A DNA stretch of 64,000 nt from Brevinematales bacterium (GCA_020059465.1 JAGVBZ010000030.1:199976-263975), one strand, 5' to 3'. Counted from the first letter of the stretch, positions 26,331-60,494 are shown. Numbers and translations are program-made. The notes: generated by a model from the letters alone, not told the origin.

Positions 26331-26738
26331 TCAGGAGACGCCCTTCGAGACAAGGTATGGGACATATTTCATATCGAGAAACTTGATATGCTTGAGCAGC
26401 CAGTCGCGCAGAAAATTCAGGACATCGATCGATACAAGCATCCGGCCTCTGTCGAAGTCCTTCCGGAGCTTACCGATTTTTTCGATAAACTCCAGATGCT
26501 GGGTTTTCTGGCCGTCCAGTTCAGGATATTTATACGCCGCCAACAGGTTTTCCTCGTCGTTGAAATGCACCTTCGCATAATTCTCCAATTCGACAAACAC
26601 CGATTCGAGAACCTGCCCGCCCGTCCCCTGATTCATCGCGTCGTGAAGTTTATTAATAATCCCCACAAGCTTTTTATGCTGATTATCGATATGCGCGATA
26701 TTTGTGTTCAGATCATCGCGCCATTCAATGAAATTCAT
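26331..26738 (-). CDS. bacteriohemerythrin paralog 3 (ligand position 77 is Gln)
   Basis: 135 aa. WRDDLNTNIAHIDNQHKKL, VHFNDEE, GQKTQH and LLKHIKFLD align without gaps to the two paralogs upstream. Confidence 0.85.
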   Translation of the reverse strand: MNFIEWRDDLNTNIAHIDNQHKKLVGIINKLHDAMNQGTGGQVLESVFVELENYAKVHFNDEENLLAAYKYPELDGQKTQHLEFIEKIGKLRKDFDRGRMLVSIDVLNFLRDWLLKHIKFLDMKYVPYLVSKGVS

Positions 26739-26767
26739 AATTTCTCCTCATTTCATATGGATAAATC

Positions 26768-27175
26768 CTACTTTATCCCCTTTTCGGCGAGATAAACCGC
26801 ATATTTCTTGTCAGAATCTGCAATATGCGAAACCAGCCAGTCCCTCAGAAAGTTTAACACTTCTATGGAAACCAGCATCTTTCCGGAAATAAAGTCCTGC
26901 TTGAACTGATTCACTCTTTTCACGAAATCGTCGTGCTGAATCTTATGCTGGCTAAATCCGGGATACCCGTTATCGCTCAGGATTTTTTCCTCGTAGGTGA
27001 AATGCTCTACCGAGTACGCGGCCATTTCATCCAAAATCGTCTCGAGGATATTTTTCCCCTTCCCCTGCTTCATCGCATCGAAAAGCGAGTTAAGGATATC
27101 GACCAATTTTTTATGCTGGCTATCGATAGCCGCTATTTTTAAATCGAGACTGTCGCTCCATTGAAGATAACCCAT
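26768..27175 (-). CDS. bacteriohemerythrin paralog 2
   Basis: 135 aa. WSDSLDLKIAAIDSQHKKL, EHFTYEE, QHKIQH, SHIADSD. Confidence 0.88.
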   Translation of the reverse strand: MGYLQWSDSLDLKIAAIDSQHKKLVDILNSLFDAMKQGKGKNILETILDEMAAYSVEHFTYEEKILSDNGYPGFSQHKIQHDDFVKRVNQFKQDFISGKMLVSIEVLNFLRDWLVSHIADSDKKYAVYLAEKGIK

Positions 27176-27257
27176 AGTACCACCTCCTTACTGATAACTA
27201 TTTCTCTTTATAAAAATACTCGGAGACAAAGCGTTCCAGGAAAAACAAATAGAAGAT

Positions 27258-27674
27258 TTATGTTTTTTCAGTTTTTTGAAGACTGTTCTCATACTCTTTA
27301 TAAAGGATACTCTCCTCGCGGTTGATCCTGTTTGTAAGTACCGCGCATAATGCGCCGAAAGAACGGGCGAAATCGAAACCCGAACTCTCCGCCGTATACT
27401 TGGCATAAAAATCTTCCACCTGCTTGACGACCGTATCCATATCCTTCATAAATACGTTCATCGTATTAAGAATCTGAATATCCGACTTGCCGGCTTCCCT
27501 TAAAACAGGATAGAGATAAGTGTCCTCGCTTTTCAGATGTTTGACAAGCATATCCTTGATTGAAAATAGGAGTTCTTTGCCTTCCCGTGTGGAAATCCCT
27601 TTCTCTTTTACAAGCCTTACCGCCTCCTGAATCTGTAAATGATCTTTCTGAAATTCTTCCAGATGACCCGGCAT
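27258..27674 (-). CDS. hemerythrin HHE cation-binding-domain-like protein
   Basis: 138 aa. FQKDHLQIQE and VKHLKSEDTYLYPVL fit the H..E / H..E(D)..L(Y)P pattern of HHE domains. Confidence 0.65.
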   Translation of the reverse strand: MPGHLEEFQKDHLQIQEAVRLVKEKGISTREGKELLFSIKDMLVKHLKSEDTYLYPVLREAGKSDIQILNTMNVFMKDMDTVVKQVEDFYAKYTAESSGFDFARSFGALCAVLTNRINREESILYKEYENSLQKTEKT

Positions 27675-27735
27675 ATTGATACCTCGCTATATACTATCGT
27701 TTTCTTTTCCGCAGAAATTATCGCGGAACGGATTT

Positions 27736-28143
27736 CTACTTCATTCCCTGAGTGTTCAAAAAAGCCCCGAACTTCGTGTCGACCTCCGCGATGTGCGAGA
27801 CAGTCCAATCGCGCAGGAAATTCATCACTTCGATGGAAAGCAGAATCTTTCCGGCCTCGAAACCCTGCTTGAACTCGGTAACCTTCCTGATAAACGAATC
27901 ATGCTCGGTCTTGTGCTTGGTATAGCCGTCGTAGGAAAACTTCTGCATGATACGTTCCTCGGCGGAAAAATGCTCCACCGAATACTTGGCAAGCTCGTCT
28001 ATCGTAACCGAAAGAACATCCTTCCCTTTACCCATCTTCATCGCATCGTACAGATTATTAATCAGGTCGATGAGATGCTTATGCTGGTTATCGATCTCCG
28101 ATACAGCAATCGATAAATTGTCAGACCATACCATAAAACCCAT
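27736..28143 (-). CDS. bacteriohemerythrin paralog 1
   Basis: 135 aa. WSDNLSIAVSEIDNQHKHL, EHFSAEE, KHKTEH, SHIAEVD (full set of canonical His/Glu/Asp ligand positions). Confidence 0.88.
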   Translation of the reverse strand: MGFMVWSDNLSIAVSEIDNQHKHLIDLINNLYDAMKMGKGKDVLSVTIDELAKYSVEHFSAEERIMQKFSYDGYTKHKTEHDSFIRKVTEFKQGFEAGKILLSIEVMNFLRDWTVSHIAEVDTKFGAFLNTQGMK

Positions 28144-28161
28144 ATATTCCTCCTATCCTTC

Positions 28162-29313
28162 TTATGATTTCAACGGAAGCGTGAAATAAAACTTCGATCC
28201 CGAACCGGGAAGGCTCTCCACTCCGATCACGCCCTTATGCCCTTCGATAATTATTTTCGATATCAATAGACCTAACCCGGTACTTTCCTCGTTCCCGGAG
28301 GGGCGGTTGGTTCCTCTCTGGAACTCGTTAAATAAACGCGAAATATCGTCGGGGGATATACCCGGACCCTGATCGGAAATACTTGTCCTGATAAAATCGC
28401 CGTCTCTCGCGGCTTCGATAATGATTTGTGAACCTTCATTCGAATACTTGATCGCGTTCCCGATCAGGTTATTCAGGACTTGCAATATCTTGTTCTTATC
28501 GAATTCAAACAAAGGAATATCGTCATTTATTCTTAACGTGATGGCGATTCCTTTTCTCGCGGCAAGTATCCGGTTCAGCTGATAATTATGCGTCAGGATA
28601 TCGCAATAATCGTTGACGTCGATATCCAACGTGAGCTGGCCGCTCTCGATCTGCGAGGAAGTCAGGAGATTCCTGATCAGGTGATTCATAAAGCGTGTCG
28701 AACTGATAATCGAGTCGATAAACTCCTTATGTTCGTCGCTCAGCGAATCACCAAGATCTTCCAGAATGAACTTCGCATAGATATCGATTGCGGACAATGG
28801 ATTACGGAGATCGTGCGCGACAATTCCAAGGAAGCGGTTTTTCGCCTTATTCAGTTCCTCAAGCTTACGGCGCTGCTCTTCCACCTCGCTGATATCGTCC
28901 ACAATTAATAGCACAGTATCCTCGCCGCTATAATGAATGAATTTTGTCGTGTAGAGTAAGTATTTCATGATCTTTTTCCCGCCGATATAGAAACAGCGGG
29001 TTAGTTCATGCCGGAGTATCGTTTCCCTGTCAGAAATTGTCTTCATGATCGATTGACGAAGCTGGCATTCCCCGCAGTAATCGGTGGTTCCGCACTCCAT
29101 CCCGGTTTCCGCGACATACATGCATTTTATACCGTTACCGCAGAGCTTACCGATAAAATCCAAAGCTTTCTGCCCGAATAGAACCTCGGCGGTATCGTTG
29201 ACATTAATAATCCTCGCGTCTTTATCGACAATAAAAACGGCAGAGGTCAGGTTATTGACAAGGTTTTGTAAAAATTCTGACGATTCTTTAAAATCTTTTA
29301 TGTCAAATTTCAT
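28162..29313 (-). CDS. cytoplasmic sensor histidine kinase with Cys-rich PAS-like sensor domain
   Basis: 383 aa with no TM. PAS-like N-terminus carries C-x5-C-x9-C-x5-C-x2-C (LCGNGIKCMYVAETGMECGTTDYCGEC). H-box FLGIVAHDLRNPL. N and G boxes (NLIGNAIKYS, DQGPGI, GLGLLISK). Confidence 0.88.
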   Translation of the reverse strand: MKFDIKDFKESSEFLQNLVNNLTSAVFIVDKDARIINVNDTAEVLFGQKALDFIGKLCGNGIKCMYVAETGMECGTTDYCGECQLRQSIMKTISDRETILRHELTRCFYIGGKKIMKYLLYTTKFIHYSGEDTVLLIVDDISEVEEQRRKLEELNKAKNRFLGIVAHDLRNPLSAIDIYAKFILEDLGDSLSDEHKEFIDSIISSTRFMNHLIRNLLTSSQIESGQLTLDIDVNDYCDILTHNYQLNRILAARKGIAITLRINDDIPLFEFDKNKILQVLNNLIGNAIKYSNEGSQIIIEAARDGDFIRTSISDQGPGISPDDISRLFNEFQRGTNRPSGNEESTGLGLLISKIIIEGHKGVIGVESLPGSGSKFYFTLPLKS

Positions 29314-29424
29314 ATTTCACTTCGATAGATTATATATTATTTAATAATAATAATATAATAAAAAAAAGGCAAGAGACGAATGATAAAACCCGGTACTATT
29401 TCCGTCAGAGTATATCAGACACGT

Positions 29425-29460
29425 AAAAAAAGGAGCGTCCTAACAGGGCGCCCCTTTTTA
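29425..29460 (-). terminator. rho-independent terminator downstream of the ferredoxin gene (bidirectional-looking)
   Basis: aaaaaaa-ggagcgtcc-taaca-gggcgcccc-ttttt: GC-rich imperfect stem flanked by an A-run and a T-run. Confidence 0.6.
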
Positions 29461-29477: not shown

Positions 29478-31467
<1,990 letters not shown>

Positions 31468-31794: not shown

Positions 31795-31822
31795 ACTACA
31801 AATTACTTTTTTGGAGTATCCT

Positions 31823-32380
31823 ATGAAAAGAGTACTAGTCCTTATTTTTGTTCTCGTTTCAGTACCGTTGTTTGCTGATAGTTTCAACGTTGATACAATT
31901 CAGGGTTTGTTAAAGAACGGACAGTATTTGAAACCGCTCATCAACTATAATATCGTATCCTCGGTTTCTTCGCTTTCCATGGAAGAACGACAGGGACTGT
32001 ATTACAAATGCGTCAAGAAAGACGCTTTTGGTGGATTCATTTTGAATTTCTTAATCGGATTTGGTATCGGAAATTATGCTATCGGCGATACACAAGGTGG
32101 GACAATTACGCTATTCGGATATTTATTATCCGGTGGTATTATTGCCCTAAGTCAGGGTATGGGAAGTTCCATTTCTGTTGGGAAAAGTATTGTTCTAGCT
32201 ACTGGTTTATCCGGTTTGGGATTTTTCATCATTCGCGGCTGGGTCAGTCCATTTACCTATCAGGCTTACCGAAACGAGGAAATGAAAAAGCTTCTGCTTC
32301 TAAACGACAATCTAACTTATAATCGCCAGTCTATGTCAGGTGATATATTTCATCTCGAACTTATGTCGTTTAGTTTCTGA
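31823..32380 (+). CDS. membrane protein, paralog A (GFGIGNYxIGDTxGG motif)
   Basis: ATG at 31823, 6 nt after GGAG (the track start at 31811 is TTG). Signal peptide, three G-rich hydrophobic segments, C-terminus ...LMSFSF. Collinear with the next gene. Confidence 0.65.
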   Translation: MKRVLVLIFVLVSVPLFADSFNVDTIQGLLKNGQYLKPLINYNIVSSVSSLSMEERQGLYYKCVKKDAFGGFILNFLIGFGIGNYAIGDTQGGTITLFGYLLSGGIIALSQGMGSSISVGKSIVLATGLSGLGFFIIRGWVSPFTYQAYRNEEMKKLLLLNDNLTYNRQSMSGDIFHLELMSFSF

Positions 32381-32407: not shown

Positions 32408-32980
32408 ATGAAAGCATTTATAGCGATTATTTTCATACTGTTGTCGATTAATTGTTATGCTCAGGTAAATAACGTAGTTCAACTTCAGTCAGGAATTGAT
32501 AAACAACTATTTTTAGACCCGAATAAATTCGACGGTTTAGCCTCAATTTCATCTCAACTTCCACTCGAAATGCGTGAATTTGCATACAATAACGGGCAAA
32601 AAAGCGATGCTGTCGGCGGTTTGTTACTGAATATTTTTCTTCCGGGGTTTGGTATTGGGAATTATGTAATCGGAGATACATCCGGAGGAACATTGAATCT
32701 TCTGGGTTTTCTTGCCTCAGCAATAACACTCGCTTTAGGTAGTTCATTAACTGAACCAGGGATACCTCCTATTATCCGTCAAATATCCACTTTAGGTATG
32801 GTTGTATCCGGAATTGGTGGAGCCGGTGCGGCTTTCTTTGTTATCCGCGGATGGATTTCTCCTTTTATCTATCAGAACATGTATAATGAAAACCTGAAAA
32901 AACTACTCCTCCCCGAACAGCAGAAACTTACACATTCTGCGAATGAATTCGAACTACCGGTACTTTCAATAAGTTTTTAG
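32408..32980 (+). CDS. membrane protein, paralog B
   Basis: 190 aa with AGGAG RBS. Shares GxGIGNYxIGDTxGGT, FxIRGWxSPFxYQ, KKLLL and a C-terminal ...SF with paralog A. Confidence 0.65.
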   Translation: MKAFIAIIFILLSINCYAQVNNVVQLQSGIDKQLFLDPNKFDGLASISSQLPLEMREFAYNNGQKSDAVGGLLLNIFLPGFGIGNYVIGDTSGGTLNLLGFLASAITLALGSSLTEPGIPPIIRQISTLGMVVSGIGGAGAAFFVIRGWISPFIYQNMYNENLKKLLLPEQQKLTHSANEFELPVLSISF

Positions 32981-34123: not shown

Positions 34124-34723
34124 ATGAACGGCGAATTTGAGACGGATGTCCGGGCCGACGAAATCGACCAATGGGCCGAAAAAAGCCGGTACGGCGACCG
34201 GAAAGCGTTTGCCAAGCTTTACGACCGTTTTGTGACACCGATCTACCGGTTTGTCTATTTCCGGGTGTACAACAAGTGCCTCGCGGAGGATTTAACCTCG
34301 CAGACTTTTCTGAAGGCGGTAGAGAATATTGCCGGCTACGACCGAAACAAAGGAAAATTTTCTTCGTGGCTCTACCGGATCGCCCGGAACCTGGTGATAG
34401 ACTATTACCGTTCGCGGAAAAAGACGGTCGAACTGGATGAAACTTGGGAAATCCCGTCGGATATCGACATCGAGGACGACCTGCACAAAAAGGACTTAGC
34501 CGAACGTCTGAAAGAATTGATGGATATCCTTTCCGGCGAACAGCGCGAAATAGTGGTCTTGCGCCTCTGGCAGGAGCTCCCCTATAGCGAAATCGCGTTG
34601 ATAATGGGTAAAAGCGAGGCGGGATGCAAAATGATGTTCTCACGCGCGATTGTAAAACTGCGTGATGAAGCGGATTTTCTCGCATTGGTGATCCTGTTTC
34701 TCGTCACAGGACTGACGGGATAG
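34124..34723 (+). CDS. ECF-type RNA polymerase sigma-70 family factor
   Basis: 199 aa. Region 2 (FAKLYDRFVTPIYRFVYFRV...AEDLTSQTFLKA, SWLYRIARNLVIDYYR) and region 4 (QREIVVLRLWQELPYSEIALIMGKSEAGCKMMFSRA). Confidence 0.9.
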   Translation: MNGEFETDVRADEIDQWAEKSRYGDRKAFAKLYDRFVTPIYRFVYFRVYNKCLAEDLTSQTFLKAVENIAGYDRNKGKFSSWLYRIARNLVIDYYRSRKKTVELDETWEIPSDIDIEDDLHKKDLAERLKELMDILSGEQREIVVLRLWQELPYSEIALIMGKSEAGCKMMFSRAIVKLRDEADFLALVILFLVTGLTG

Positions 34724-34732
34724 GAGAAAAAG

Positions 34733-36106
34733 ATGAAACGAAATATAAAAGATCTGATAAACGAATTATTACGTGACGACCCCTCGCTGAAAGGGAAAGA
34801 GGCCGAGCTGGAAAGAATTCTTTCCAAGGTCGCCGGGATGCGTCCCACAGCCGAACCCGGGCCGGAATTCCGCGAGCGCCTGAAAACCGAACTGCTCCGT
34901 AAATTTCCCGCGCATGACAGTCGAAAAAAAAGCCTGATCTTCTGGCTGATGCAGAAACGTGTCCGCCTCCTGATTGGGAGCGGCGCGGTGATCTGCCTGA
35001 TCGCGGTTACCGTTATTACCAACCCGATCGCGCAGATGACGATGAAAAACCAGCCCCAGCAGGCGGCGCCTGCGATTCAGCAGATTGTCACTCAGACCCA
35101 GGCTAACGGCAATTCCCAGTCTCCCTCCGCTGCTCTCCCCCAAAAGCAGGAACACGTTCTCCAGTTCCCTCCCGCCGACGGGACAACGATAGACATTAAG
35201 GAAAAAGGAACCGTGATACTCGATGAAATAACGGAGGAGAAAAACGAATTAAAAAGCGAAGTCACGGTAAGCGCGGAGGCATTGAAAGATACTAAACTGG
35301 ATGACGCCGGCGAAAAGAAAGGGGATTCGGCATTCAAGGGACTTGCCGAAGCCGATAAAGAGGGTGCGTTTCTCGCGGCAGCCGAGAAGAAAGCCAAGGC
35401 AGTTGAGAACGCGGGGATCGCGCTCGAGCAAACCCCGCTGAAGCCCGCCCCGAAAATGTTTACCTATTCCGACGTCAAGGACGAAATAGCCTCCGGAAAA
35501 CTGCCTCAACCGTCTTATTACGTCAAAACCGATATCATGATCGATTCATTCGATTATATATTGCCGGCCGGGTTCGATAAAACCCAGCCGCTTTATACCG
35601 AAATCGCCCCGTGTTCGTGGGATAACCGTTACGCCCTGCTTGTCATGCTTCTTCCCGGGGAGATTGCGAAATCCTGCAATTATCCTCCGTCGGTTCAGAC
35701 ATCCGCCGGACAGAAGGTCGCGGCGAAGTGGCTGAAACTCACTCAAACTCTTTCGGGATCGCGCCCACAGGCCGTATTCGGACTGATCCCGGCATCTGTC
35801 TACGGAGCATCAAAAGTGTCGCAGCCGCTGGAAGTAAAAATCCGTTACTTCGAGACATTCGCAGGCAAGACGAAGATTATCACTCAAAAGCTTTATTACC
35901 CCGCCGGCGTATCCGCAACCTCGTCCCTATTCCGGTTTATCTCCGCGGTATCCGAGTGGGCGCTTTTATTGAACGATCCCGCGGACGTTCCCGACGGTTC
36001 CTATGCCGACGCCCTTTCTCTCGCGGAGAAAGCTCAAGGCGCGGTTCCTGATGCGCAATGGAAAGAGTTTATCGAGGTCCTTAAACTCACAATAAAGAAT
36101 CAATAA
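34733..36106 (+). CDS. putative anti-sigma factor: single-pass membrane protein whose ectodomain has YfbK N- and C-terminal modules but no vWA core
   Basis: Starts 10 nt after the sigma gene. One TM (LLIGSGAVICLIAVTVI). SGKLPQPSYYVKTDIMIDSFDYILP...APCSWDNRYALLVML and FRFISAVSEWALLLND...WKEFIEVLKL align by eye to 29788..31467. No DxSxS MIDAS. Confidence 0.6.
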   Translation: MKRNIKDLINELLRDDPSLKGKEAELERILSKVAGMRPTAEPGPEFRERLKTELLRKFPAHDSRKKSLIFWLMQKRVRLLIGSGAVICLIAVTVITNPIAQMTMKNQPQQAAPAIQQIVTQTQANGNSQSPSAALPQKQEHVLQFPPADGTTIDIKEKGTVILDEITEEKNELKSEVTVSAEALKDTKLDDAGEKKGDSAFKGLAEADKEGAFLAAAEKKAKAVENAGIALEQTPLKPAPKMFTYSDVKDEIASGKLPQPSYYVKTDIMIDSFDYILPAGFDKTQPLYTEIAPCSWDNRYALLVMLLPGEIAKSCNYPPSVQTSAGQKVAAKWLKLTQTLSGSRPQAVFGLIPASVYGASKVSQPLEVKIRYFETFAGKTKIITQKLYYPAGVSATSSLFRFISAVSEWALLLNDPADVPDGSYADALSLAEKAQGAVPDAQWKEFIEVLKLTIKNQ

Positions 36107-36631: not shown

Positions 36632-37339
36632 ATGTGTTTCCGGGTTTCCCGTAAGATGCCGAACGAAGAATGGCTGATCGATTTCCATGTCGAGGAGAAG
36701 GATAATACTGTTTCCGAATTGGATATGATGCCGTCCTATAATATCCCGCCCGGCGTCAAGGCGCTCGTAGTCTATAAAAATCCCGTTACCAATAAGATCA
36801 CTCTCGGCGCGTTCAAATGGGGACTCGTGCCCCATTGGGCGGCGGACGTCACGATCGGCCAGAAGCTCGCCAACGCGCGTTCGGAAACCCTGCTCGAAAA
36901 ACCGAGTTTCCGCGATGCGTTTAAGAAAACCCGGTGCCTATTCATCGCCGACGGGTTCTACGAATGGGTCACCGACCCCGGTTCCGGGAAAAAACTTCCG
37001 TACCATGTCCGCCTCAAGAACGGCAAACCGTTCGCGTTCGCCGGGCTGTATTCGCAATGGGATTGCCCCGATAAGGGCGAAGTCCTGATGACCTGTACGA
37101 TCATCACCACATCTCCGAATTCGCTGATAGAGAAGATACATGACCGGATGCCGGTCATCCTCGACCCGGGCTCGTACGACCAGTGGACTACCCCGGGATT
37201 TTCACCCGGCCTGCAGAGTCTGCTGACATCCTTCCCGTCCGGCCTGATGGAAACCTACCGCGTATCCCCGTTCGTGAATAAGGCCGGAAACGACTCCCCG
37301 GAATGCGTCCGCCCTCTGAAGGAGAACGAACTATTCTGA
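36632..37339 (+). CDS. SOS-response-associated peptidase (SRAP/YedK family, abasic-site processing)
   Basis: 235 aa. N-terminal MC (catalytic Cys2), YNIPPG, WGLVPHW, ANARSET, ADGFYEW, FAFAGLY, TTSPN, IHDRMPVIL. Confidence 0.88.
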   Translation: MCFRVSRKMPNEEWLIDFHVEEKDNTVSELDMMPSYNIPPGVKALVVYKNPVTNKITLGAFKWGLVPHWAADVTIGQKLANARSETLLEKPSFRDAFKKTRCLFIADGFYEWVTDPGSGKKLPYHVRLKNGKPFAFAGLYSQWDCPDKGEVLMTCTIITTSPNSLIEKIHDRMPVILDPGSYDQWTTPGFSPGLQSLLTSFPSGLMETYRVSPFVNKAGNDSPECVRPLKENELF

Positions 37340-38533
37340 TTCGCCGCCGGGCATCGTTCCCATACCGGCAGCCGCGCGAAGCGCGTCGTCATACACCCGC
37401 CGGAACGGGATATTATTCGCGCGGGCTAACTCCGCGCAGTCCTCGTACTCCGGCGCGGCGCTGACCCGTTCGCCGTCAAAATACCCCAGCTTGACCCGCA
37501 CTTTCCCCCACTCAGTCGCCGCTTCGGCAGTATCGCGCCGAAGGATTACCCGTTCTGTCGTACGCACCCGCGCGCCGAGCGTACCCGTCTCGCGGAACAG
37601 CACTGCAAGGAGTTCGCCGCGCTGTCCGGGCATGGCGATCACGGAAAGCACGTGCCCCGGCCTCCCTTTTTTCATCAGTACAGGCGCAATGGTGACGTCG
37701 AGCGCGCCCGCGCCGAATAATTTCTCCTGAGCGTACCCGAGCGCTTCGGGAGAAATGTTGTCTATATTCGTGATTATTTCTATGACAGTTTCACTGCACG
37801 TTTCGGAAGCATCCGCGCTCTCGCCGAGCGTCAGCCTGAGCAGGTTCGGGCGCTCGTCGAAATCCTTACTGCCCGCGCCGTAACCCGATCCGGTCACCGT
37901 CATCGGCGGCATCACCCCGAACCCGCCGGCAAGCTCCCGCAGAAGCGCGGCCCCCGTGGGGGTCGTGAGCTCCGATTCGATACCGCCGTCGATCACAGGG
38001 ATTCCCTCAAGGAGGCGCAGGGTCGCAGGCGCGGGAACAGGCAAAATCCCGTGCGCGCATCTGACGGTACCGTGCCCCGTCGCCACCGGAGACGAATATA
38101 CCTGATCTATACCGAGCATCGAGAAGCCGAGTATTGTCCCGGCGATATCGTAAATCGAATCGAGCGCGCCTATCTCATGGAAATGCACTTCTTCCGGGGC
38201 GATATTATGGATAGCCCCCTCCACCCCCGCTATTTCGCGGAACACCTTCATTGTTCGTTCCTTCACCCCCGCGGGAAGCCCGGACTTCCCTATAATCCCG
38301 CCTATCTCGCGGAGTCCGCGGTGCTCGTGTCTATGCCCGCGCTCCGTTATCTCGAAGTATGTTCCGGTTATCCCGTGCTTCTGCACTTTTTTTACCGACG
38401 GTTCGCATTCGCTGAGCCCGAGGGAGTCCATCGCGGATTTCCACTCGCCGAACGGAAGCCCGGCATCCAGAAGCGCGCCGACTAGCATATTCCCGCTCGC
38501 GCCGGAAAAACAGTCGAGGTACGCGATTCTCAT
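37331..38533 (-). CDS. larC: nickel-pincer cofactor biosynthesis protein LarC (nickel insertion, DUF111)
   Basis: 400 aa. MRIAYLDCFSGASGNMLVGALLDAG and HFHEIGALDSI are typical LarC N-terminal motifs. Confidence 0.88.
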   Translation of the reverse strand: MRIAYLDCFSGASGNMLVGALLDAGLPFGEWKSAMDSLGLSECEPSVKKVQKHGITGTYFEITERGHRHEHRGLREIGGIIGKSGLPAGVKERTMKVFREIAGVEGAIHNIAPEEVHFHEIGALDSIYDIAGTILGFSMLGIDQVYSSPVATGHGTVRCAHGILPVPAPATLRLLEGIPVIDGGIESELTTPTGAALLRELAGGFGVMPPMTVTGSGYGAGSKDFDERPNLLRLTLGESADASETCSETVIEIITNIDNISPEALGYAQEKLFGAGALDVTIAPVLMKKGRPGHVLSVIAMPGQRGELLAVLFRETGTLGARVRTTERVILRRDTAEAATEWGKVRVKLGYFDGERVSAAPEYEDCAELARANNIPFRRVYDDALRAAAGMGTMPGGESE

Positions 38534-39375
38534 GGCGTTTCTCCGTCACCGGATGAGAGATCGTTGTTAAAGTCGGAAATTTCCTTATTCGCAGAGGATA
38601 TTTCCCTATCCGGAACAGACGGATTCCCGTTTTTATAGATCAGTCCGGCGGAAAAACCCGCCCCGAACCCGTTATCGATATTGACGACCGAGACCCCCGG
38701 CGCGCAGGAATTGAGCATCGATAAGAGCGCGGCGATCCCCTGAAAGTTCGCGCCGTATCCGACGCTGGTGGGCACCGCTATCACAGGGCAAGGAACAATT
38801 CCGCCGACCACGCTCGCAAGCGCCCCCTCCATTCCCGCGACCACCACCGCCGCGCGCGCGTCCAGCAGGATATCCAGATGCGCGAGGAGACGATGCACCC
38901 CCGCGACACCGACGTCGTACAGGCGAACCACCCGGCATCCGAGGAGTTCGGCGGTCACCGCAGCCTCCTCAGCGACAGGCAGGTCGGAAGTGCCCGCGGA
39001 AACCACTGCGATATACGGGCCGTCTTCCTTCAGCGCAGGGACAGCCCCGACAGTCACTATCCGCGCGGTCTCGAAATAATCCGCGCGTCCCCGGAGATAC
39101 TTGAGCGCGTCGTAAACATCCTTGCCTGCGCGAGTCCCGATCACCAGCGCCTGCGATTCGGAAAGACGTTCGAAGATCGCGGTAATCTGTTCGATGGTCT
39201 TACCCTGGCAGAACACCACCTCCGGAAAACCCTGACGGATATTCCGGTGGGTGTCGAGACGGGCGAAACCGAGATCGGCGTAGGGAAGATGTCGGAGCGT
39301 GTTCATCGCATCGTCCACAGGAATCTTTCCCGCGCGGACATCCTCCAGCAGGGATTTTATTTTATCTTTATCCAT
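38530..39375 (-). CDS. larB: LarB (pyridinium-3,5-biscarboxylic acid mononucleotide synthase, AIR-carboxylase-like)
   Basis: 281 aa. N-terminal DLGFARLDTHR region, PurE-like core VVSAGTSDLPVAEEA...VAGMEGALASVVGG. 4-nt overlap with larC. Confidence 0.85.
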   Translation of the reverse strand: MDKDKIKSLLEDVRAGKIPVDDAMNTLRHLPYADLGFARLDTHRNIRQGFPEVVFCQGKTIEQITAIFERLSESQALVIGTRAGKDVYDALKYLRGRADYFETARIVTVGAVPALKEDGPYIAVVSAGTSDLPVAEEAAVTAELLGCRVVRLYDVGVAGVHRLLAHLDILLDARAAVVVAGMEGALASVVGGIVPCPVIAVPTSVGYGANFQGIAALLSMLNSCAPGVSVVNIDNGFGAGFSAGLIYKNGNPSVPDREISSANKEISDFNNDLSSGDGETP

Positions 39376-40177
39376 TCATCAGTTCCTTCGGGTTCATCTT
39401 ACCCTGCCGGTATCCGTCGAGGTCGAGGCAGAATGTCTCGTAGCCCAGCGAACGAAGCCGCTCTATCAGGTCGGCGCGAAACTTGTTATCGGTCAGACGC
39501 GCCATCTCCTCAGGGGCTATCTCAATCCGCGCGGTAGGAAACGTATCCCTGACGCGCACGACCGAAAACCCCTGATTGTTCAGGAATTCCTCAGCCTCTC
39601 CGATCCGCCTCAGCCGTTCCGGCGTAATCCGTTCACCGTAGGGTATACGGGTGGCGAGGCACGGCGATGCGGGGCGATCCGCGGTAGGGAGATTGAAACG
39701 GCGGGACAGTTCGCGAATCTCCTTTTTAGTAAGCCCTGTTTCAAGGAGGGGGCTGCGTATCCCGAGTTCCCGCACCGCGCGCATCCCGGGACGGTAGTCG
39801 TTCAGATCGTCGGCGTTCGTCCCCTCGACAATCGTCACATCGCCGGGAAGAGTATCCTTTAGCTTCGAGAACCGTGAAAGTTTACAATGGTAGCAGCGTT
39901 CGGGGGTATTCTCGGCAAATTCGGGATTTTCCAGTTCGTCCGGCATCGGTATCACCTCGAACGGCGCCCCGATCAGCAAGGCGGTTTCACCCGCGCTCGT
40001 CAGCTCGCCCGGCTTATTGAGCGGGGAATCAACCATATAGGCGGTTGTATTTCCGGGGCGGGCTTCCCACGCTGCTTTCAGAAGGAGCGTGCTGTCGACA
40101 CCGCCGGAATACGCCACCCCGATCTTCTCCATCCGCGACAGCATTCCCATCAATTTTGCGAGTTTTTTGTCAAGCAT
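39368..40177 (-). CDS. larE: LarE (ATP-dependent sacrificial sulfur transferase, PP-loop)
   Basis: 269 aa. PP-loop GVAYSGGVDSTLL, CYHCK, Cys-containing SPCLATRIPYG. 8-nt overlap with larB. Confidence 0.85.
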   Translation of the reverse strand: MLDKKLAKLMGMLSRMEKIGVAYSGGVDSTLLLKAAWEARPGNTTAYMVDSPLNKPGELTSAGETALLIGAPFEVIPMPDELENPEFAENTPERCYHCKLSRFSKLKDTLPGDVTIVEGTNADDLNDYRPGMRAVRELGIRSPLLETGLTKKEIRELSRRFNLPTADRPASPCLATRIPYGERITPERLRRIGEAEEFLNNQGFSVVRVRDTFPTARIEIAPEEMARLTDNKFRADLIERLRSLGYETFCLDLDGYRQGKMNPKELMNG

Positions 40178-40357: not shown

Positions 40358-40891
40358 ATGAAAATCTTAATATTGAATGCGCTGAAGGAGTGGATTCTTA
40401 AGGCATTCAGTCCGGAAAAATGGAAGGAAATTGCTGAAAGTTCAGGTCTCGGGGTAGAACAGTTCCGGGAAGGCGATAAAGTTTTCTCCGACGACCGTTT
40501 CGCCCTGCTGGTGGCAAATCTGTCCCATCTCCTCGATATGGCCGAAACGGAAGTCGTGGAACAATTCGTCCATTACTGGATGACAGATTTCGCGCCGAGA
40601 ATTTATTCGTACTACCTGAAAAAATCCGCCACCGCAAAGGAATTCGTACTCGGCATATTCCAGATGAATAACCTGCTCTGTAAATTATTCCCCAATAACC
40701 ACCTTTCGAAAGTCGATTATCAGGAAATCGACCGTTATACCCTGACCGCGGTGTACCCGACCGAAAAGGCGTTGGTCGATATAGTCGCTATCCTGCGCGG
40801 CGTCAACCAGCAGTTTACCGACCGTTTTACTATCCGCAAGATCAACCCCCACAGTGTGGAGATCATGTTCGAGAAACGGGAAGAAGTATAG
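40358..40891 (+). CDS. H-NOX/HNOB-like domain protein lacking the proximal heme His
   Basis: 177 aa, standalone. Collinear by eye with Thermoanaerobacter-type H-NOX (recalled from memory): MKILILNALKEWILKAF..., FxxMxxxx where the His is expected (GIFQMNNLLCKLF), and Y-P-T-E-K in place of Y-x-S-x-R. Confidence 0.5.
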   Translation: MKILILNALKEWILKAFSPEKWKEIAESSGLGVEQFREGDKVFSDDRFALLVANLSHLLDMAETEVVEQFVHYWMTDFAPRIYSYYLKKSATAKEFVLGIFQMNNLLCKLFPNNHLSKVDYQEIDRYTLTAVYPTEKALVDIVAILRGVNQQFTDRFTIRKINPHSVEIMFEKREEV

Positions 40892-57399: not shown

Positions 57400-58692
57400 A
57401 TGAAGGTAGTGACACCAGAATCCCTGCGAATGTACCGCAGGTCCTTAGCTGAAATCGATAAGAAGATACTCGACCGCGTCGCTGAGATTATCGACGAGGT
57501 ACGCGAACGCGGCGACGATGCGCTGATCGACTTCACGCGCGAATTCGACCGGGTTGAGGGAGATTTCCAGATCGAGGCAACCGACGAGGAATTCGACGAC
57601 GCCCGCGCCCAGGTACGCGCCGAGCACGGCGATATCCTCCGTTATTTCCTCAACGCCGCTGACAATATACGCCGTTTCCACGAGCGCCAGCGCGAATCGT
57701 CGTGGATGTATACCGATAACGGCAACCTGTTCGGGCAGATGATCACTCCCATAGACCGCGCCGGGGTATATGTCCCGGGCGGTAAGGCGTTCTACCCGTC
57801 GTCCGTTCTGATGAACATTATCCCCGCGAAGACCGCAGGAGTACCGGAGATAGTGATCTGCACGCCGCCGCTGAAAAACGGCTCCGCGAACCCGATGGTA
57901 CTGACGCTCGCAAAGGAACTGGGGGCGGAACGGGTGTTTAAGGTAGGCGGGGCGCAGGCGATCGCCGCGCTTACATACGGGACTGAAACCGTACCTTCGG
58001 TCGCAAAAATCACCGGGCCGGGAAATATTTATGTCGCGACTGCGAAACGTCTTGTGTCCGGGATGGTGGGGATCGATTCGATCGCGGGGCCGTCCGAAGT
58101 GGTGGTGCTCGCCGACCATAGCGCAGACCCGGAGCTTGCCGCTATCGACCTCTGCGCGCAGGCAGAACATGACGAAAATAACGCCGTGTTCCTGATCTCG
58201 CCCAGCCGGAACTTTATCGACCAGGTAAACCGCTGCCTCGACAGCATTATTCCTACGCTGGAACGGCGTCATATCATAGAAGCATCGCTCAACCTTCATT
58301 CGTTTGCTGTTGCGGTCGACGACCTCGATCAGGCGTTCGATATCGTGAACAGGATCGCCCCTGAGCATATCGAGGTCATGATGGATATGGACTCGACCGA
58401 GATATTCACACGAATCCATAACGCGGGCGCAATCTTTATCGGAAATTTCTCTCCGGTCGCAACCGGGGATTATTACTGCGGGCCGAACCACATCCTGCCC
58501 ACCAAAGGCACCGCGAGATACTCGTCGCCTCTTGGAGTGTACGATTTTATCAAACGCAGCAGTTTTCTCAGCCTGTCTGAGAGTTATCTGAAGGAAAAAG
58601 GCGACGAGATCGAACAGATTGCGCTTTTCGAGGGATTCGAGGCGCACGCGCTGTCGGTCAGGAAGCGTCTGGACGGGACAAAGGAAGGGTAA
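57400..58692 (+). CDS. hisD: histidinol dehydrogenase
   Basis: 430 aa. GGAQAIAALTYGT, ITGPGNIYV, AGPSEV, QAEHD, APEHIE, GDY..GPNHILPT. Confidence 0.93.
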   Translation: MKVVTPESLRMYRRSLAEIDKKILDRVAEIIDEVRERGDDALIDFTREFDRVEGDFQIEATDEEFDDARAQVRAEHGDILRYFLNAADNIRRFHERQRESSWMYTDNGNLFGQMITPIDRAGVYVPGGKAFYPSSVLMNIIPAKTAGVPEIVICTPPLKNGSANPMVLTLAKELGAERVFKVGGAQAIAALTYGTETVPSVAKITGPGNIYVATAKRLVSGMVGIDSIAGPSEVVVLADHSADPELAAIDLCAQAEHDENNAVFLISPSRNFIDQVNRCLDSIIPTLERRHIIEASLNLHSFAVAVDDLDQAFDIVNRIAPEHIEVMMDMDSTEIFTRIHNAGAIFIGNFSPVATGDYYCGPNHILPTKGTARYSSPLGVYDFIKRSSFLSLSESYLKEKGDEIEQIALFEGFEAHALSVRKRLDGTKEG

Positions 58693-60494
58693 AAATGAAC
58701 GACGAACCCTCGCCCGGTTCCGATTCGACCCATATCGTACCGCCGTGGAGTTCGACGATTTTCCTGCAGACAGACAAACCGACGCCGCTTCCTTCCACTT
58801 CATCATAGGTAACCAGACGCTGAAACGGCTCGAATATTTTCTCCCAATATTTCTCGTCCATCCCCACGCCGTTATCGGAAACCGTAAACCGATAGAAATC
58901 CCCGGTTATTTCACAGCTTATGTCGATTTTCGGAGGAGTATCGGGTTTGGCATACTTTATAGCGTTACCGATCAGATTTTGGAACAGACGGGAGATTTGG
59001 GTGATATCCCCGTATATTTCGGGCATTTTCCCTGCCGTAATAACGGTGTTTGTTTCATCTATCAGTATCTTCAGGTTTAGCAGCGTTTCCTGCAACGCCG
59101 CATCCATCGAAAACACGGAAAACTCTTTTTTAACTGTGCCGATCCGGCTGTAATCGATGAGGTCTTTTATCAGGGTATTCATCCGCTTCCCGGCATTCAG
59201 GGCAAGTTCGATGAATTCAAGCAATTCCTCATCCCTTACCGGATTTCCTTTGATTTTCCCCGATCAGGCCTAAAAATCCCGACATCGTATGCAGAGGGGC
59301 TTTCAGGTCGTGCGAAACCGCATATGCAAACTGTTCGAGATCTCGGTTACTCTCTTTTAAGAGTTTCTCCTGCTCCTTCTGCCGTGAGATATCGATAATT
59401 AATCCTCTGATACCGGATATTATGTCATCGTCCATTATCGGCGTACTTGAAATCAATGCGGGGATTTTCGTATTTATATCCATTGCCGCTTCGCTTTCCA
59501 ATCCTTGTATCCTCTTCTCACGCATCATGGATAATATTTCAGTATCCCCCGCTTTTATCAGGTCCTGTATCCGCAATTCCTGGGGATGTGAGGCCGCGTA
59601 CAGACGAAACATCTCTTCAAGAGATTTATTATAGTAAACAATTCTTCCGGAAACATCCGTCTCGAATACCGAAATAGGCAGAAGGTCGGAGAGTTCCCGA
59701 AAACGTGTCTCGCTCTGCTTCAGCTCGCGGAACAGCAGACGATACGGTTCGCTCAGCCCCGTTTTTATGATCGCGCGGTAGATCAGGTAAAATGAGAGGA
59801 GTTTGAAATAATGCCCGATAAGATTGGTAAAACCGTAATTATCGGTATAAACCGTAAAGAATAATTCGGCCGCAATAGTAAAAACGAGGGAGAACAGGAG
59901 CAGCAGGAAAATATTTTCATCGAATTTCTTTCTGCGATAAACAAGCGCCCCAATTCCTGCGGCGAGAATCCCGCAGATAATGTATTCGCTTATTATTTTA
60001 AATTCCGTCTGACCAAGGCCCTCGACAAAACAAACCGGAAAGTTCTTCCAGATGAATATCGATGCAAATAACAGGATAGTCGCGGCTGAAAAACCCAAGA
60101 TCGTTAAGTGCGGGTGTTTCAGCTCTTTCTTTTTTGCAAAGAAGATGCCTGCAAACAGGCTGATGCTCTCCATAAAACGCCCGCCGATCCAGAGCTGATT
60201 AGCATAGTAGTCGTAGTCGGTAAATATATTCATTCCCTTATATGAGAGGGCGTGGAGAAGATCGATGCCGCCGATAAAAAGATAAGCTATCCCGATGAAC
60301 ACCAGATACCCGTTGGAAATGATTTTCCGGGTATTCCATGTGATAAAAAAGATTGTTACGGATACAGTGATACTGAAAAATTCTATTAACGAATGGAAAA
60401 GAAGGTAATTATAACGGCTCGAAAGATATAAGCCCCCAATAATAAAAAGCCAGAATACGGAATATCCCGCTTTATTTATCAGATGTTTCCCCAT
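58658..60494 (-). pseudogene. membrane sensor histidine kinase interrupted by a 1-nt frameshift in the DHp domain
   Basis: ORF 59229..60494 (about 6 TM + PAS + H-box FAYAVSHDLKAPLHTMSGFLGLI) ends ...NQRKSGKG-TGA. The adjacent frame continues DEELLEFIELALNAGKRMNTLIKDLIDYSRIG + HATPase (58658..59233). The junction lies at a GGG run (rc of 59233-59235). Confidence 0.75.

Follow-up and report, generated by a model that had tools for sequence, protein, structure and literature searches.

Introduction

The characterised hemerythrin sensors keep all five of their histidine (His) ligands (PMC9388753), and the hemerythrins HerA and HerB of Campylobacter jejuni protect the iron-sulfur (Fe-S) enzymes Por and Oor from O2 (PMC4257069). 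Work on the kinase NreB has shown that Fe-S clusters held by cysteines of the N-terminal PAS domain can govern the activity of a soluble kinase: NreB of Staphylococcus carnosus is a [4Fe-4S] O2 sensor, and NreB of Bacillus licheniformis is a [2Fe-2S] sulfide sensor (PDB 9WEX; PMC13478379). Here we describe a locus of five genes, all on the minus strand at positions 26331-29313 of a 64-kb stretch of DNA from a Brevinematales bacterium (the window), which encodes a cysteine-rich PAS histidine kinase, three bacteriohemerythrins (Hr1, Hr2 and Hr3) and an HHE-domain protein. With a probability of about one half, we read this locus as a five-gene operon of an anaerobic relative of the spirochaetes with Rnf/ferredoxin metabolism, in which an O2- or redox-responsive kinase would be co-transcribed with hemerythrins that scavenge O2 and protect Fe-S proteins. 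The operon is probably an oxygen/redox defence unit made from known parts.

Organisation of the kinase-hemerythrin locus

An earlier note on this DNA had described five genes on one strand separated by short gaps. The coordinates of the open reading frames (ORFs) bear this out, the intergenic spacings in order from the kinase gene to the Hr3 gene being 18, 61, 82 and 29 nt, and each gene downstream of the kinase gene has a Shine-Dalgarno sequence of its own. The genes and the sites that delimit them are the following.

28162-29313, minus strand: HK, soluble class-I sensor histidine kinase, gene 1 of the operon; 383 amino acids (aa)
27736-28143, minus strand: Hr1, bacteriohemerythrin of orthogroup A; 135 aa, NF033749 154.7 bits, ligands HHEHHHD
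27258-27674, minus strand: HHE-domain protein, divergent; 138 aa, PF01814 1e-9
26768-27175, minus strand: Hr2, bacteriohemerythrin of orthogroup B; 135 aa, NF033749 151.4 bits, full ligand set
26331-26738, minus strand: Hr3, bacteriohemerythrin of orthogroup C; 135 aa, NF033749 141.7 bits, ligands HHEQHHD
29344..29372, minus strand: promoter-like site of the kinase-hemerythrin operon; −35 TTGCCT, 17-nt T-rich spacer, −10 TATTAT, from a consensus scan
29425..29455, minus strand: intrinsic terminator of the ferredoxin gene and 5' boundary of the operon; hairpin GGGGCGCCCTGTTAGGACGCTCC followed by TTTTTTT
29478..29645, minus strand: 2x[4Fe-4S] ferredoxin, a conserved neighbour in a separate unit; 55 aa, Fer4 domains, from translation
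29705-29677, minus strand: promoter-like site of the ferredoxin gene; TTGACA-17-TATACT, near-consensus

The AT-rich stretch between the ferredoxin terminator and the kinase start contains the TTGCCT-17-TATTAT site, which was identified by its match to the consensus and not by mapping of a transcription start. In the window and in two of the three related loci listed in the next section (L082 and L084), the block CTTGCC-T-rich-TATTAT(TA) is kept 5' of the kinase gene. The ferredoxin terminator is a G+C-rich hairpin followed by seven T; our scan found the same stem and reported it on the opposite strand, and counterparts of the hairpin are present in L082, L084 and L087. No terminator-like sites were found by the scan on the minus strand inside 26331-29313. 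Because of the ferredoxin terminator, the conserved promoter block and the lack of an internal terminator on this strand, the five genes are most simply viewed as one operon that starts with the kinase gene. That they would behave as a single conserved unit, as the earlier note had assumed, is supported by these features together with an identical gene order in four Brevinematales-type genomes and purifying selection.

The ferredoxin gene was considered as the first gene of the operon and rejected on account of its own strong promoter-like site and its hairpin-T7 terminator; the earlier note did not recognise that this conserved neighbour forms a transcription unit of its own. The ORF list entry 29478-29918 overstates the length of this gene. 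A perfect 7-1-7 palindrome, TATTATTAAATAATA, lies over the −10 region of the kinase promoter-like site. It was tried as a Fur/PerR-like operator and rejected, since its absence from L082, L084 and L087 marks it as an AT-rich chance occurrence.

Conservation of the operon in Brevinematales-type genomes

Four genomes, including that of the window, share the kinase-hemerythrin order, and their kinases are 61-78% identical. The three related loci are composed as follows.

L082 (GCA_013177895.1): kinase, then 135, 135, 139 (HHE), 135 and 135 aa
L084 (GWF1_51_8): kinase, then 135, 135, 133 and 135 aa
L087 (last hemerythrin identical to a GWF1_49_6 protein): kinase, then 135, 133, 135 and 135 aa

Pairwise identities place the hemerythrins in three orthogroups with the fixed order A-(A')-(HHE)-B-C. 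L082, L084 and L087 have group A in duplicate, and two of the four genomes have an HHE gene. In L082 and L087, the hemerythrin encoded first is 84-89% identical to Hr1, and Hr2 is 80-81% identical to L082_g4 and L087_g3 and 62% identical to L084_g3. The ratio of non-synonymous to synonymous substitution rates (dN/dS, Nei-Gojobori) lies between 0.05 and 0.17 for the kinase and every hemerythrin pair, with values of 0.08-0.17 for group C. The hemerythrins are three long-diverged paralogues, each kept by selection, to which the HHE protein is an optional addition. The distance from the kinase stop codon to the first hemerythrin start is 14-19 nt in the window, L082 and L084, and 141 nt in L087. 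A ferredoxin gene directly 5' of the kinase gene is also present in L082 (4394-4561) and L084 (7536-7703). The recurrence of the arrangement in four genomes, together with the invariance of four cysteines in 35 members of the kinase family (see below), argues that it is more than chance.

The kinase and its cysteine site

The kinase matches the Pfam models for PAS, HisKA (PF00512; 3e-16, 59.6 bits) and HATPase_c (PF02518; 2e-25, 90 bits). Its features are arranged as follows.

28894..29277, minus strand: N-terminal PAS domain, aa 13-140, from the AlphaFold 2 (AF2) model and Foldseek
29065..29142, minus strand: cysteine segment C58-x5-C64-x9-C74-x5-C80-x2-C83, from the translation and the family alignment
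28639..28845, minus strand: HisKA dimerisation and phospho-acceptor domain, aa 157-225, with His167 (PF00512)
28168..28500, minus strand: HATPase_c catalytic domain, aa 272-382 (PF02518)

No transmembrane segment is present, the maximum 19-residue Kyte-Doolittle hydropathy being 1.34, as the earlier note had also concluded. The kinase appears to be catalytically intact, as judged from the retention of the motifs of active kinases (H-box His167 and the G-box glycines). In the family alignment, A166, H167, D168, R170 and P172 of the HisKA motif AHDLRNP are invariant and L169 is nearly so; the G-box G346-L347-G348-L349 is invariant, and N282/N286 and D314/G316/G318 are nearly invariant.

Translation confirms the cysteine motif C-x5-C-x9-C-x5-C-x2-C that had been read previously (C58, C64, C74, C80 and C83). 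In an alignment of 35 family members with 34-78% identity, which spans Sumerlaeia, Brocadiae, Labilibaculum, Caldisericia, Spirochaetota and Bacteroidota, the four cysteines C64, C74, C80 and C83 never vary, and C58 hardly does. This invariance shows that the density of cysteines reflects a real site and not an accident of composition. The 47 best database matches, of about 362-408 aa, align with the query kinase from end to end; in 45 of them C-x(8-10)-C-x5-C-x2-C stands at a fixed position, and in a 46th (P0034) its first spacing is shorter. No weaker kinase match has this motif, which cleanly delimits the family, a small one of kinases of about 385 aa that extends over several phyla. Its members come from taxa and metagenomes of anoxic habitats, among them sediment, sludge, Brocadiae and Caldisericia. 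The kinase itself is found on a metagenome contig of the Joint Genome Institute (JGI) and on a 284-kb NCBI contig, and its nearest relatives are those of a Brevinematales bacterium (78%) and of Spirochaetes bacterium GWF1_51_8 (61%).

The Pfam PAS models cover only residues 13-58 and end at the cysteine segment, so the cysteine-bearing part lies outside every curated model. The AF2 model of the whole kinase has a predicted local distance difference test score (pLDDT) of 84, and the model of residues 1-148 shows a PAS fold with a pLDDT of 90. Foldseek relates this sensor-domain model to the solved PAS domains of NtrB (3b33), LOV, FixL and NifL at TM-scores of 0.6-0.8. In the AF2 model the cysteine segment sits between short helices predicted at 58-70 and a long helix at 84-95. 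It is this helical region that provides the cofactor ligands in cofactor-binding PAS domains such as those of FixL, LOV, NifL and NreB. In B. licheniformis NreB, the same PAS region supplies C63, C66 and C78 (PMC13478379).

The cysteine-rich kinase is not the only kinase of the window, since a MASE3-PAS histidine kinase is split over two ORFs at 58658-60494 (minus strand). The ORF 59229-60494 stops 28 residues into HisKA, and the ORF 58658-59224 holds the remainder of HisKA and the ATPase domain; the break near 59225 is a frameshift or stop and marks a pseudogene or else an error in the assembly.

The hemerythrins and the ligand at position 77

Hr1, Hr2 and Hr3 match PF01814, as the HHE protein does, and score 142-155 bits against the NCBIfam bacteriohemerythrin model NF033749 (motif H-HxxxE-HxxxH-HxxxxD), above its cutoff of 84, and from their sequences are assigned to the O2-binding bacteriohemerythrin subfamily. 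The three proteins of 135 aa align without gaps. At the ligand positions 21, 58, 62, 77, 81, 117 and 122, a column census gives HHEHHHD for Hr1 and Hr2 and HHEQHHD for Hr3. All this agrees with the earlier note, which had found a gap-free alignment, seven intact diiron positions in Hr1 and Hr2, and glutamine (Gln) in place of His77 in Hr3. The substituted codon is located as follows.

26508..26510, minus strand: Gln77 codon of Hr3, in place of the first His of the HxxxH pair; translation DGQKTQH

The closest solved structure to Hr3 is DcrH-Hr (2avk), whose residues 7-136 match residues 4-135 of Hr3 with an E-value of 1.3e-21; Hr3 also aligns to McHr (4xpx) at 6e-17. The HMMER alignment to 2avk places G-Q-K-T-Q-H under R-H-K-E-I-H, so that the alignment to a solved structure and the column census agree on the substitution. 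The first His of the HxxxH pair is a ligand of Fe1, according to the motif description (PMC9388753) and established hemerythrin structure. As six of the seven diiron ligands are kept, Hr3 is by sequence homology a ligand-variant member of the subfamily and not a canonical one.

Gln77 is not confined to Hr3. The earlier note was correct for this protein but missed that the orthologous last gene of every array carries the same residue: the orthologues L082_g5 (73% identity), L087_g4 (71%) and L084_g4 (49%) all have Gln77, and the position-77 motifs of group C in the four genomes are DGQKTQH, DAQKTQH, DAQKTQH and AGQKAQH. The presence of Gln77 in four of four last genes and the low dN/dS of group C indicate that the residue is inherited and under selection and is no lesion.

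We also recorded the ligands in 258 hemerythrin domains, obtained from the 150 best cluster representatives of an exhaustive HMMER search (less than 50% mutual identity) and 29 closer matches. All ligand positions are at least 97% conserved except position 77, at which 213 domains have His, 39 have Gln and 6 have other residues. Among the domains examined, position 77 is thus the sole tolerant ligand position, with Gln as the dominant replacement. Gln77 occurs in at least 29 representative proteins, of which 13 have a single domain, 4 have other regions and 12 are fused multi-hemerythrins, with the patterns QH, HQ, QQ, QQQ and QHH. Four proteins (P0154, P0244, P0256 and P0299) are methyl-accepting chemotaxis proteins (MCPs) with a C-terminal Gln-type hemerythrin, an architecture like that of DcrH. 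Since C-terminal domains of chemoreceptors carry Gln77, this type has a place in signalling proteins and is unlikely to be a dead protein. The variant is not peculiar to Hr3 but belongs to a widespread natural class that includes chemoreceptor sensor domains.

The frequency of 15-17% for Gln77 may be inflated, because the query by which the matches were ranked itself has Gln77. An attempt to count position 77 without bias in the retrieved loci yielded only two further hemerythrins, and none of 26 non-orthologous word-index matches has Gln77. A Gln domain is among the three nearest neighbours of 25 of 34 Gln-type domains and of 40 of 204 His-type domains, so the clustering is partial; as judged from these sequence comparisons, the existence of many independent Gln77 clusters is robust. 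Leu74, three residues before position 77, is found in 65% of Gln77-type and 29% of His77-type domains, and may reflect an adjustment of the second shell to the altered ligand. Fusions of two hemerythrin domains are common (33 HH and 8 mixed H/Q) and are the fused counterparts of the tandem gene array; the mixed fusions are a hint that a His-type domain may act together with a Gln-type one. Five proteins (P0151, P0152, P0153, P0161 and P0208) contain four tandem bacteriohemerythrin domains in one polypeptide.

None of the PDB hemerythrins among the alignments listed has Gln at position 77. Ligand variation among 106 single-domain O2-binding hemerythrins was reported by Alvarez-Carreno et al. 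2016, who called for the characterisation of such proteins (PMC4919030). We found no residue-specific analysis of the ligand variants in that paper, and its main text does not contain the words Gln or glutamine. Compared with the variants as its main text presents them, those described here are distinguished by variation at one position, by the dominance of Gln, by conserved orthologues and by fusions to MCPs.

The HHE-domain protein

The HHE protein matches PF01814 (1e-9), does not match the bacteriohemerythrin model NF033749, and has only three relatives in an index of 5.8 billion clusters. Its His residues are at positions 4, 12 and 46 only; the H-x3-E of the first half is kept, and the ligand His of the second half appear to be replaced by D78 and N115. 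Its orthologue in L082 is 63-64% identical, L084 and L087 lack the gene, and its dN/dS is 0.05. On these sequence features we regard it as a lineage-specific, degenerate member of the HHE superfamily that is optional in the operon.

The JGI annotation assigns this protein to the RIC family, which speaks for the alternative that the operon serves iron or Fe-S homeostasis: the hemerythrins and the HHE protein would act as iron buffers or as donors for repair like RIC/YtfE, the iron of the Gln77 paralogue would be more labile, and the kinase would monitor Fe-S status. In H-ferritin, Gln is the weaker ligand of the labile ferroxidase site; a ferredoxin gene is a conserved neighbour of the operon, and the HHE protein has a weak match to the RIC/YtfE model TIGR03652 (E-value 0.0017). 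However, the score of this match, 18.2 bits, is far below the cutoff of 204.7, and the HHE gene is missing from two of the four operons. Hr1-Hr3 fall in the O2-binding subfamily, and HerA has no repair activity in C. jejuni (PMC4257069). We consider a role in iron homeostasis very unlikely.

Proposed function of the operon

In the O2/redox defence unit that we propose, the Cys4 site of the kinase PAS domain would hold an O2- or redox-labile metal centre, more likely an Fe-S cluster than a zinc (Zn) or thiol site. The Fe-S cluster is favoured because of the anoxic distribution of the family and the precedent of NreB. The kinase would pass on the O2/redox state to a response regulator whose gene lies elsewhere. 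By binding or consuming O2 or peroxide, the hemerythrins would protect enzymes that contain Fe-S clusters or depend on ferredoxin in O2 transients (compare HerA/HerB, PMC4257069). In Hr3, Gln would take the place of one imidazole ligand of the six-coordinate iron Fe1; being a weaker, neutral O-donor, it should alter the redox potential, the autoxidation rate or the lability of the iron. The paralogues would have unlike affinities or redox behaviour, so that the properties of the array would be graded. The metabolic context invoked by the earlier note is real, as Rnf genes and two ferredoxins are present in the window.

Several observations weigh against this proposal. The Cys4 pattern is just as compatible with a structural Zn site. 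With the cysteine segment as seed, a scan of metagenomes gave 66 loci, and the kinase ORF was recovered in 54 loci from outside the Brevinematales; in 347 kb of flanks at these 54 loci, 35 of which have at least 1.5 kb downstream, no hemerythrin was found. The linkage of kinase and hemerythrins is hence specific to the Brevinematales lineage. The conserved adjacency could itself reflect common descent, as the four operon genomes belong to one order and share a wider block of VWA, ferredoxin, kinase, hemerythrins, a 352-aa protein and PPK2. The functional tie between the kinase and the hemerythrins may be shared transcription and no more. A partner regulator is also lacking nearby: a profile built from about 149 receiver domains gave no match with E<=10 in the window ORFs of at least 40 aa, and phmmer searches of the 64 kb with CheY, PhoB and Spo0F gave no match, so the window has no response regulator, as had been stated before. 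Finally, the mechanism by which HerA and HerB protect is not settled (PMC4257069).

Neighbour clustering over the 54 family loci revealed no recurrent partner or regulator, only clade-specific synteny; the response regulators near these loci are few and each is paired with a different kinase. From these surroundings the family is predicted to consist of orphan, stand-alone kinases. One might suppose that the kinase and the hemerythrins are unrelated neighbours, the kinase sensing a signal other than O2 through a PAS domain in which Cys4 is a structural Zn site, and the promoter being shared by inheritance within one order. This fits the confinement of the linkage to a single clade, in which a block of about ten genes is syntenic, and the lack of a conserved genomic partner elsewhere; moreover, C-x2-C with two distal cysteines is a common, textbook pattern of structural Zn sites. 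Yet the junction of kinase and array and the promoter remain in place where the copy number of the array shifts (A' gained, HHE gained or lost), other synteny is rearranged between the window and L084, and the kinase family is restricted to anoxic habitats. We judge mere neighbourhood to be somewhat unlikely.

Outside the Brevinematales, kinase and hemerythrin were seen together once, on a 1.1-kb metagenome contig (L140, 20-502 on the minus strand and 736-1128 on the plus strand). There, a divergent hemerythrin with a full ligand set lies about 230 nt from the start of a kinase that is a distant (33%) member of the Cys4-PAS family. As a base-rate sample we used 80 unrelated kinase loci from a scan with generic H-box/N-box patterns, which also served as the source of receiver domains and hold no synteny information; these contain one hemerythrin in about 1.1 Mb. 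At this base rate the single case is not above chance, and L140 was rejected as an independent association.

The L140 contig does bear on a further alternative, in which at least one free-standing hemerythrin (the candidates being Hr1, whose gene follows that of the kinase, and the Gln77 paralogue) binds the kinase as the O2 sensor and its oxy, deoxy or met state controls autophosphorylation, with the Cys4-PAS domain as a docking site or second input. Such an arrangement would mirror the control of neighbouring kinases by stand-alone H-NOX or NosP proteins. It would accord with the start of a hemerythrin gene 14-19 nt after the kinase stop codon in three of the loci and with the Gln77-type domains in MCP fusions; hemerythrins fused to MCP, GGDEF or HD-GYP outputs act as O2/redox sensors (PMC9388753). 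Even so, the kinase has an invariant sensor site of its own and lacks a neighbouring hemerythrin at 54 other loci, the gap in L087 widens to 141 nt, and the lone co-occurrence in L140 does not exceed the base rate. Control of the kinase by a hemerythrin partner is, in our view, unlikely.

The earlier note had inferred a module that senses or buffers O2, redox state or iron. This is plausible but supported only in part: the conserved operon and the invariant Cys4 site speak for it, whereas the linkage is clade-specific and the analogy to NreB is architectural only. The word "dedicated" that the note attached to the module does not hold for the kinase family, which is not tied to hemerythrins.

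Other features of the window

A free-standing H-NOX protein of 177 aa is encoded at 40358-40891 (plus strand; PF07700 HNOB, 1.6e-14), about 11 kb from the operon. It is a second putative gas (NO/O2) sensor, and no adjacent kinase or cyclase was noticed. A VWA/YfbK protein at 29560-31467 (plus strand) is divergent from the ferredoxin-kinase side and is kept in all related loci. At 34124-36106 (plus strand), the gene of an extracytoplasmic function (ECF) sigma factor is followed by that of a 457-aa protein with a weak C-terminal match to YfbK_C (4e-5); the latter may be an anti-sigma factor that shares a domain with the VWA protein. Tandem paralogous proteins of 189 and 190 aa with signal-peptide-like N-termini are encoded at 31811-32380 and 32408-32980 (plus strand), and one of them weakly resembles the Borrelia membrane protein P13 (2e-4). 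Three co-oriented genes at 37331-40177 (minus strand), two of which JGI annotates as Ni_insertion (PF01969) and AIRC (PF00731), resemble a gene set of the LarC/LarB/LarE type, which serves the nickel-pincer cofactor.

Comparison with known systems

NreB is encoded with an adjacent NarL-type regulator, NreC, whereas no receiver domain is encoded in the 64-kb window that holds the kinase described here. Like NreB, this kinase is a soluble cytoplasmic histidine kinase of about 350-380 aa, whose sole sensor is an N-terminal PAS domain with a cysteine cluster at about 58-83 in the helical cofactor region. The cysteine spacing is CX2CX11CX2C or CX2CX11C in NreB and CX9CX5CX2C in this kinase, and the dimerisation and histidine phosphotransfer (DHp) domain is of the HisKA_3 type in NreB and of the HisKA type (PF00512) here (PMC13478379 for NreB). 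A profile of the Cys4 kinase family matches the NreB PAS domain (9WEX) with an E-value of 0.24, over residues 10-45 only, which are generic N-terminal strands. On cysteine spacing, DHp type and this level of similarity, the kinase was rejected as an NreB homologue; the likeness to an NreB-type O2 sensor drawn in the earlier note thus holds for the architecture and fails for these three traits, and by this comparison the relation is best termed an architectural analogy and not membership.

Searches of the literature on a Gln ligand in hemerythrins, on Cys4/Zn PAS kinases and on Brevinema hemerythrins returned nothing relevant. In the literature searched, neither the coherent, cross-phylum family of soluble orphan kinases with a Cys4-PAS domain nor the class of hemerythrins with Gln77 is described; each part is of a known kind (PAS kinases, bacteriohemerythrins, O2 defence of anaerobes). 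A bolder interpretation is that Cys4-PAS marks a new class of Fe-S (or redox-thiol/Zn) sensor kinases unrelated to NreB in evolution, which in the Brevinematales has recruited free-standing hemerythrins, notably the conserved Gln77 paralogue with its altered Fe1 site, as trans-acting O2 co-sensors. We regard this as quite improbable; if true, it would amount to a split hemerythrin-kinase O2 sensing system without characterised precedent.

Should the Cys4 site bind an Fe-S cluster, it would represent a second, independently evolved solution to the task of NreB and would offer a handle on O2 sensing in uncultured Brevinematales, Brocadiae, Caldisericia and Sumerlaeia. To bioinorganic chemists the hemerythrins offer a natural His-to-Gln series, in which Hr2 and Hr3 from one operon can relate Fe1 coordination to O2 affinity, autoxidation and iron lability. 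Current understanding is not overturned by these findings.

In the H-NOX/HnoK and NosP/NahK systems, the gene of a small gas-binding protein stands beside that of a soluble kinase, often without an adjacent regulator, and the kinase depends on its partner for sensing. The present locus resembles this type in that the co-oriented Hr1 gene adjoins the kinase gene, 18 nt after its stop codon. It differs from it by the kinase's own invariant sensor site, by the general lack of hemerythrins across the kinase family, and by diiron in place of haem.

As in C. jejuni with HerA and HerB, several free-standing hemerythrin paralogues occur here in an O2-sensitive organism that depends on Fe-S oxidoreductases. 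The C. jejuni genes are dispersed, with herA beside iscS/nifU, and no Gln variant has been reported among them, whereas the genes described here form an array behind a kinase gene. In the review of hemerythrin sensors (PMC9388753) we found no kinase with free-standing hemerythrins, the term "histidine kinase" being used only in the definition of HAMP and in the title of a reference. The examples in that review, DcrH, Bhr-DGC as well as Bhr-HD-GYP, are all fused proteins, which upholds the earlier view that the arrangement has no characterised example. These fused sensors share with the present locus the bacteriohemerythrin subfamily and a signalling context in anaerobes; they join the hemerythrin to its output domain, whereas here free-standing hemerythrins are encoded beside a kinase.

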